From Planctomycetota bacterium (GTDB lineage: Bacteria; Planctomycetota; UBA8108; SXIK01), in contig OZ244999.1 in assembly GCA_965223265.1 (NCBI GenBank), forward strand, positions 5,312,001 through 5,376,000: a stretch of 64,000 bases of DNA, written 5' to 3'. The position numbers and the translations under genes are program-made. The notes under the pieces are model-generated. The model had not been told where the DNA came from. It saw only the letters and a program-made list of their open reading frames with translations, and did not search any database. Of the stretch, positions 17,837 to 32,191 are shown piece by piece (position 1 is the stretch's first letter; every line of letters begins with the position of its first letter).

Positions 17837-17926
<90 letters not shown>

Positions 17927-19475: not shown

Positions 19476-19552
<77 letters not shown>

Positions 19553-30783: not shown

Positions 30784-30969
30784 TTAGCAGCCTGCCTGAA
30801 AAAGTGCTTCGAGCCGAAAACTGGTCTCTTCGCGTCCAGATCGGCCGCGGCAAACGCAGGTAATCTCCGAGCCCTCTTCTATAAGGTATACGGCGAGTAT
30901 TGACGCGGCCCGTCTGGGCGTGAAGAGGCCGGTTTCTCGGCCGAATGACTTTTTCAGGCGGGCTGTTAG
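30784..30969 (+). mobile_element. MITE-like hairpin element, full copy (TTAG duplication included)
   Basis: TTAG-CAGCCTGCCTGAAAAAG...CTTTTTCAGGCGGGCTG-TTAG. Confidence 0.87.
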
Positions 30970-31085
30970 GCAGCCCATCTTTGTCGCTGGACGCGGAGCG
31001 AGGAAAGGACTCGCAGCGCGTGGGCGGATAGACGCACCCGGGGTGTGGACTCGCAATCAGCTCGACCGCGAGCTAAAATCAGCAG

Positions 31086-31449
31086 GTTCCCCAGTAGAGG
31101 ACATGGTCGTGGCCCATGAGGGTCCTCACCGACTCGGGCCGAGGAAAGTCCGGACTTCGCAGGGTAGCGTGGTGGATAACGTCCACCGGAAGCGATTCTA
31201 GGGAAAGTGCCACAGAAAACATACCGCCAGGCGACTGGTAAGGGTGAAAAGGCGAGGTAAGAGCTCACCGCGAGGATGGTGACATTCTCGGCACGGTAAA
31301 CCCCACGCGAAGCAAGACCAAATAGGGAAGGAGAGGCGACCCGTCTCGCGCGACTTCGGTCACACACTTCCGGGTAGGTCGCTTAGATGAAGGACCATGC
31401 GGCGGCTTCTGCCGTTGAACAGGATCCGGCTTACGATCTGCTGGGGAAC
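31086..31449 (+). ncRNA. rnpB: RNase P RNA, type A, lacking P18
   Basis: GAGGAAAGTCCGG, AGTGCCACAGAAA, GGTAAACCCC, AAGACCAAATAGG, ACAGGATCCGGCTTAC; P1 GTTCCCCAGTAGA/TCTGCTGGGGAAC; TAAAAT -10 at 31074-31079. Confidence 0.96.
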
Positions 31450-31489
31450 GTTTCTCACACCTCGGCGAATACAGCTCGCCACGGGATTC

Positions 31490-32191
31490 TCAGTCAGCCA
31501 GGTAGAGAAAGCGTGTGCACTGCGAGCACTGAACGATCTCGCCGAGCATGAGCTGATTGACGTTTTGAGGCGTCAACCGCATGTGGCAGCCGCGGCAGAT
31601 ACCGTCTTGCACCTCGGCAATTGCGAAGTTCTGATGGCGATCGAGCACACGTTCGTACAGCGCCAAATGTTCGCGATCAATGCCCTCGGTGTGTTGGGCC
31701 CGCTCTGTCTCCAACTGACTCAGCTGCCCGTCGAGCCCCTTCAAGAGCTCGGCCATCTCGGCTTCCTTACGAGCGAGGATTTCTTCAGCTTTGCGCTGGC
31801 TCGTCTCGGCAAGTTCAAGGCGCTCCTGGAGGTCGTCGATCTCTGAAAGTTTCGCGAGCACGTCCTCTTCGGCCTTTCCACGCTCCTCGATCTGTCGCTC
31901 GATCTGGTCAGTCATGACCTGATACTCAGCGTTCGACTTGCACTGGTTGCGTGCCCCCTTGATCTTATTGACCTCAGCGTCGTACTGCCGCACGTCAACC
32001 TCGAGCGAGTCTGCAGCGACGCGAAGATCTTTGATCGCGCCTCGAATGACCTCGACGCCCGCCCTCTCCTGCGCCACCTTTTGACGATCCTCATCGAGCT
32101 CGCGGGGTCTTACCCGCTTCGCTTCACGCAGAAACAGAATCTGCGAATCGAAATCCTGAACCCGCAACAACCGTTCAATCGAGCCATGCAT
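31490..32191 (-). CDS. coiled-coil C4 zinc-ribbon protein (DUF164/CT398-like)
   Basis: Long coiled coil with KSNAEY; CRGCHMRL...IVQCSQCTRFLY. Confidence 0.88.
   Translation of the reverse strand: MHGSIERLLRVQDFDSQILFLREAKRVRPRELDEDRQKVAQERAGVEVIRGAIKDLRVAADSLEVDVRQYDAEVNKIKGARNQCKSNAEYQVMTDQIERQIEERGKAEEDVLAKLSEIDDLQERLELAETSQRKAEEILARKEAEMAELLKGLDGQLSQLETERAQHTEGIDREHLALYERVLDRHQNFAIAEVQDGICRGCHMRLTPQNVNQLMLGEIVQCSQCTRFLYLAD

Follow-up and report, generated by a model that had tools for sequence, protein, structure and literature searches.

A type-A RNase P RNA without helix P18 in an order of Planctomycetota

The RNase P RNA gene (rnpB) found in the window, by which we mean the whole 64-kb stretch of DNA analyzed, encodes a bacterial type-A RNA that lacks helix P18. 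In RNase P, a model ribozyme, the contact between L18 and P8 is one of three braces invoked to explain how the two domains hold together. Without P18 there is no L18 to reach P8, and the catalytic and specificity domains lose this brace. We consider it very probable that rnpB is a single functional type-A gene whose P18 was lost in an ancestor of the order, and that the remaining contacts and the protein hold the domains, the loss being tolerated and not repaired. The RNA adds an order-level case from the Planctomycetota to the known P18-less variants of type A, and it is one of many such losses.

When the whole window was compared with Rfam 15 using cmscan, the sole ribozyme match was to RF00010 (RNaseP_bact_a) at 31091-31448 on the plus strand. 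The match scored 252.2 bits (E value 5.5e-81; the gathering score of the family is 100 bits) and spans model positions 1-367. In the genome, a single contig of 9,179,496 bases, RF00010 matches once, and no match to the type-B RNase P RNA (RF00011) was found. P1-P5, P7-P11, P13, P14, P15, P16/P17 and J18/2 were all aligned to the model. Both hairpins that distinguish type A from type B, P13 and P14, were aligned in the S-domain, and the strands of P4 and J3/4 are conserved (GAGGAAAGUCCGG ... ACAGnAnCCGGCUUA, 31141-31153 and 31419-31433). The GGU motif of L15, which serves the CCA end of the tRNA (PMC9945441), is present and aligned to the model in CCGGGUAGG at 31370-31378. The P18 hairpin with the GNRA loop that makes the L18-P8 contact is absent; rnpB is still a member of type A, since some type-A RNAs are known to do without this helix. 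The elements of the RNA are the following.

31091-31448 (+): rnpB, bacterial type-A RNase P RNA; CM boundaries, with P1 pairing reaching 31086/31449
31086-31101 (+): P1 5' strand, including 5 extra pairs past the model; complementary to 31435-31449
31141-31153 (+): J3/4 and P4 5' strand, GAGGAAAGUCCGG, universal core; high posterior against the model consensus
31172-31186 (+): P8/L8, from cmscan and the multi-sequence alignment
31188-31199 (+): P9 with L9 (31192-31195), a GCGA tetraloop and candidate partner of P1; cmscan
31227-31238 (+): minimal P12 of 4 bp with a GCGA loop; 8 model positions deleted (cmscan)
31333-31347 (+): P17 hairpin; 5/5 pairs kept in 11/11 sequences of the order (columns 54-68)
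31352-31361 (+): additional P16.1-like hairpin with a UUCG cap, lying after P17 and before the P16 3' strand; an insert relative to the model
31371-31393 (+): 3' side of L15 (GGGUA), P15 3' strand, then J18/2; the P18 site is 31382/31383
31394-31399 (+): P2 3' strand, pairing with 31102-31108; cmscan
31400-31417 (+): P19 hairpin; 9 predicted pairs (columns 140-167)
31419-31433 (+): P4 3' strand, ACAGGAUCCGGCUUA; cmscan
31435-31449 (+): P1 3' strand; from the sequence and cmscan

In the P18 block, 24 model positions were matched by 0 bases, which confirmed the central observation of the initial annotation that P18 is absent from this RNA. The junction at 31370-31393 reads CCGGGUAGGUCGC, then UU, then AGAUGAAGG, and J18/2 therefore directly follows the 3' strand of P15. 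The side features reported with it were likewise borne out, namely the minimal P12, the hairpin at 31352-31361, P19, the long P1 and the AAG in J18/2. The five extra P1 pairs beyond the ends of the model, read from the sequence, join 31086-31090 with 31445-31449; the extended P1 is also found in a relative (G001), where the letters differ and the pairing is kept. The length of P12 is variable within the order. At 31385-31393, J18/2 reads AGAUGAAGG, with AAGG instead of the usual AAUG (AGAUGAAUG). AAGG also occurs in G001 (G001:C4:275889-275954), the family's only other intact rnpB, and in these two alone of all sequences inspected. On the sequences compared, this linker, otherwise highly conserved, has changed at the level of the family.

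The RNA bears the marks of a maintained structure. In the 3' half of rnpB, 32 pairs are predicted, and 14 of them show changes on both sides among 11 sequences of the order; each of the 9 predicted pairs of P19 has at least one such change. These compensatory changes are indicative of selection on the structure of rnpB. A promoter scan near the gene returned 0 sigma-70-like sites, the sigma-70 consensus being uninformative for this phylum, and each RNA sequencing run covered 10% or less of the words sampled. Together with RnpA, the RNA would remove 5' leaders from pre-tRNAs.

The absence of P18 is shared throughout the order, which comprises 21 genomes, 18 of them with an RF00010 match; in the other three (G002, G009 and G020; 96, 80 and 55% complete) such a match was not found. 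The P18-less junction is seen in 17 of the 18 RNAs, one is aberrant, and none carries P18. Fifteen genomes fit a pattern in which the P15 3' strand and J18/2 are no more than 8 bases apart. G014 falls outside this pattern solely through GGGUUGG and its junction is likewise P18-less, and G010 has the same P18-less junction on a contig that ends a few bases beyond it. The aberrant copy, in G003 of the same family as the window (L153, G003:C19:5250-5664; 112 bits), jumps from the P13/P14 region to J18/2 without P15-P17. Misassembly or decay of this copy could account for it, the assembly being fragmented and 80% complete.

The class contains 59 genomes, of which 38 belong to the other families f4-f7. 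All 34 rnpB sequences from these sister families that were readable by the combined pattern have a P18 of 24-25 nt with a GCAA, GCGA or GUAA loop, so the loss is specific to the order within the class. A MAFFT alignment of 30 full-length rnpB sequences has a clean gap at this place, with 11 sequences lacking P18 and 19 carrying it. An ancestor of the order very probably lost P18 through a clean deletion of about 24 nt.

The phylum was sampled by a pattern search of 301 Planctomycetota genomes and by 80 further rnpB sequences from 57 other families located with RF00010. The pattern search matched 65 genomes, 57 with P18 and 8 without; six of the eight are from the order and the other two are G139 and G183 of family f57. 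Among the 80 further sequences, P18 was present in 78 (71 by automatic detection and 7 by eye) and missing from two, G115 and G139, both of family f57. When G139 is counted once, 135 of the 144 readable Planctomycetota RNAs in the combined sample carry P18, and the nine that do not come from the order (n=6) and from family f57 (n=3). Since the sister families and most sampled Planctomycetota keep P18, the loss is independent of the textbook P18-less cases, as the initial annotation had proposed for a planctomycete. Judged from these sequence comparisons, the loss of P18 in the order is real, order-level and independent. Family f57 forms a second P18-less lineage in the phylum (L212/G115, L229/G139 and G183; 3/3 sampled members), with genomes of about 2.1-2.2 Mb.

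Bacterial P18 loss has been ascribed to Aquificales and Chlorobium (PMC8457005 (2021), PMC5066622 (2016), PMC4227106 (2014)), and the natural P18-less type-A RNAs of these groups are described as active in the same sources. In the literature searched, no paper describes planctomycetes, or any further PVC bacteria, as lacking P18, and an earlier account may exist. The order resembles Aquificales (Hydrogenothermaceae, Desulfurobacteriaceae) and Chlorobium, as these are described, in the lineage-wide loss of P18 and of the L18-P8 contact with the core intact. It differs from them in belonging to the Planctomycetota, in an L9 that is GCGA instead of 5'-GYAA, in carrying PVC-type extras (the P16.1-like hairpin and P19), and in showing no sign of thermophily. 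P16.1-type inserts and P19 are given as features of PVC P RNAs in PMC9945441, which cites Butler and Fuerst 2004; the RNA shares both with the cultured PVC P RNAs treated there, and the passage on them makes no mention of P18 loss. Compared with canonical type-A RNAs (RF00010; E. coli, T. maritima), P1-P5, the P4 pseudoknot strands, P7-P14, P15-P17 and J18/2 are alike, whereas P18 is missing, P12 is a 4-bp stub, and J18/2 has AAGG and not AAUG. Archaeal type-A RNase P RNA is also without P18 (PMC5839562); in contrast to the archaeal RNAs, rnpB has a bacterial type-A score, P13/P14 and a bacterial RnpA.

Some compensation would be expected, because deletion of P18 from the full-size E. coli RNA made the RNA-alone rate almost 700-fold lower (PMC5839562). 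For Aquificales and Chlorobium, a strong L9-P1 contact has been proposed to compensate, with a GYAA loop docking on tandem G-C pairs (PMC5066622). The L9 of rnpB is GCGA, that is, GYGA and not GYAA. In a comparison confined to the class (L9 was unreadable in 61 of 108 scan matches and in 34 of 78 other planctomycetes), the loop conforms to GNRA in 15 of 16 P18-less sequences of the order (GCGA in 12, GCAA in 2, GUGA in 1) and in 19 of 19 P18-bearing sisters. As the P18-bearing sisters likewise have GNRA loops at L9, the L9-P1 contact is not marked as strengthened in the order. A comparison of L9, P19, the extra hairpin, P3 and the RnpA frames yielded no clade-specific substitute for P18.

We also weighed whether another part of the RNA has taken the place of L18, with the extra hairpin at 31352-31361, P19, a lengthened P3 or the long P1 either docking on P8 or bracing the domains in another way. 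Such extra elements are present in rnpB, and P8, the usual docking site of L18 (PMC8457005), has changed, its loop-closing pair being A-U in rnpB and in families f1 and f2 and G-C in the sister families. However, family f3 of the same order retains the G-C pair. The extra hairpin occurs in most of the order and also, like P19, in the P18-bearing families f4 and f6, but it is absent from the closest relative, G001. The loops of the extra hairpin and of P19 are non-GNRA and variable in sequence, and the P3 extension is missing in L020, L021, L024 and G014 of the same order. A replacement of L18 from within the RNA is therefore improbable. The closing pair of P8 is the only change that tracks the loss of P18, and it does so in part; it could reflect a relaxed docking site.

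Even less probable is a shift of the holoenzyme towards protein, in which a reading frame made of RnpA, an Arg-rich linker and YidD would offset the lost brace in the manner of the extra proteins of archaea. A takeover of the role of P18 by Pop5/Rpp30 has been discussed for archaea (PMC5839562), which offers a parallel. The genome contains rnpA (PF00825, 80.3 bits), as do 56 of the 59 genomes of the class. It lies outside the window, in the region G000:C1:6594998-6597288 (ORF L238:1039-1818, minus strand). Its open frame of 259 aa has PF00825 at 10-106, an Arg/Pro-rich stretch, and YidD (PF01809) at 193-258, and stop-to-stop rnpA frames of at least 190 aa were found in 6 of 18 matches in the order versus 6 of the 38 sister-family genomes with a match. 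Long frames thus occur in both groups, most members of the P18-less family f2 have frames of 153-179 aa, and open-frame lengths of RnpA do not separate the P18-less from the P18-bearing groups. The long frames are open reading frames that may or may not be made as single proteins, and rnpA and yidD commonly lie side by side. As to other RNase P proteins, a search for HARP through PF08745 (PIN_5), of which we take HARP to be a member, gave no match in the genome, nor did the PRORP profile PF16953, for which the control was likewise silent everywhere.

The reading that we prefer is that the loss was tolerated. The two domains would be held by L8-P4, by L9-P1 (with the GCGA L9 and the long P1) and by the protein, and because those contacts already exist in P18-bearing relatives, a repair by a new element need not be invoked.

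That P18 is in fact present in the organism and was dropped by the assembly or by a consensus artefact is extremely improbable. Seventeen genomes of the order, each assembled on its own, have the P18-less junction, and no insertion is listed at 31382/31383 in contigs of a second sample, of a marine sediment metagenome and of a run labelled as another organism; this reading is effectively refuted. The comparison over 30950-31600 used Logan contigs, not raw reads, from 4 runs. A contig of run X1 covers the whole interval with 0 differences, but because X1 may be the source of the window itself, this run alone is not independent evidence. The contig from the second sample covers 31256-31600 with 0 differences and no insertion at 31382/31383. 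A contig of 5408 bases from a relative (19 differences) and one of 215 bases from the marine sediment metagenome (15 differences) both span 31382/31383 with no insertion listed. The initial annotation's view of a natural loss, as opposed to an assembly drop-out, thus stands.

Its statement that P18 is near-universal in bacteria, in contrast, was too strong in this form. The junction was sought in one genome per species from 185,579 species, labels being taken as deposited, with the pattern CGGGUAG-NNN-G, 1-14 bases, AGANGAA, 10-40 bases, ACANNANNNGGCUUA. The scan gave at least 120 matches, and among the matches listed 4 are false and 116 P18-less. In the four rejected loci (L038, L047, L080 and L104), AGAGGAA belongs to a real P18, of which it forms the 5' arm; the remaining 116 have a linker of 2-4 bases and then the J18/2 motif. 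True and false matches were sorted by the length of the linker, by the presence of a long hairpin containing the motif, and by cmscan alignments, a P2-complementarity score and an RNAfold flag for a paired motif being too noisy for this use. Among the matches listed, at least 108 P18-less junctions are bacterial and at least 8 archaeal, and the bacterial ones carry about a dozen phylum labels. The matches listed are neither exhaustive nor random, the labels of bins are fallible, and relatives are not independent of each other. The bacterial junctions among the matches listed are distributed over the deposited labels as follows.

Acidobacteria-type: at least 22 of 108
Kiritimatiellae: at least 14 of 108
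Unlabelled: at least 12 of 108
Ca. Multivorans/Multivoraceae: at least 10 of 108
Verrucomicrobia, two Akkermansia included: at least 10 of 108
Lentisphaerae: at least 9 of 108
Planctomycetota: at least 7 of 108
Bipolaricaulota: at least 5 of 108
Elusimicrobia: at least 4 of 108
Bacteroidia-type: at least 4 of 108
Chlamydiota: at least 2 of 108
Ignavibacteriota: at least 2 of 108
Thermotogae-labelled: at least 2 of 108
Fischerbacteria, Xenobia, Neomarinimicrobiota, Caldithrix and Methylohalobius: at least 1 each of 108

Among the titled loci listed, the seven that match the rnpB of the window best by blastn all carry the title Planctomycetota or Planctomycetia, and the phylum assignment follows these relatives. 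All 18 scan loci that were submitted to cmscan matched RF00010 above its gathering score. Ten loci were inspected by alignment, and the P18 block is deleted in nine of them (L135, L031, L033, L036, L039, L059, L090, L097 and L123), the tenth being the false match L038. Neither Chlorobium nor Aquificales appears among the 120 matches listed, and the pattern may not fit their RNAs. As these junctions and alignments read, the loss of P18 is clearly not confined to two lineages.

A broader proposal would be that natural loss of P18 has recurred over a dozen or more bacterial phyla and that living cells can in general do without the L18-P8 brace. We hold this to be possible but, on balance, doubtful. 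If it were true, the loss would not be a curiosity of two lineages, and the P18-less phyla would be mostly uncultured and mostly not known thermophiles, with gut genomes labelled Akkermansia among them. The P18-less order beside its P18-bearing sister families would then be a clean natural pair for finding any compensation, a shift to dependence on an extended RnpA being one possible form of it. The P18-less order by itself leaves the understanding of the RNase P mechanism unchanged. It matters for the annotation of rnpB, for the choice of natural minimal variants for structural work and for judging how essential the brace is, and the wider spread of P18-less RNAs is a more useful lead than the single order.

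Several individual loci stand out. Two loci with Akkermansia labels, L036:6420-6792 (Akkermansia muciniphila) and L131 (Akkermansia sp.), have a P18-less rnpB, that of L036 being confirmed by alignment. L059:1149-1473, labelled Elusimicrobiota (130.8 bits), is without P18 and also without P13/P14, where 43 model positions are matched by 0 bases in cmscan; by this alignment it is a strongly reduced type-A RNA. Elsewhere in the window are two tRNA genes on the minus strand, one at 17840-17926 (RF00005, 51.8 bits) with a long variable arm and one at 19479-19552 (RF00005, 59.4 bits).
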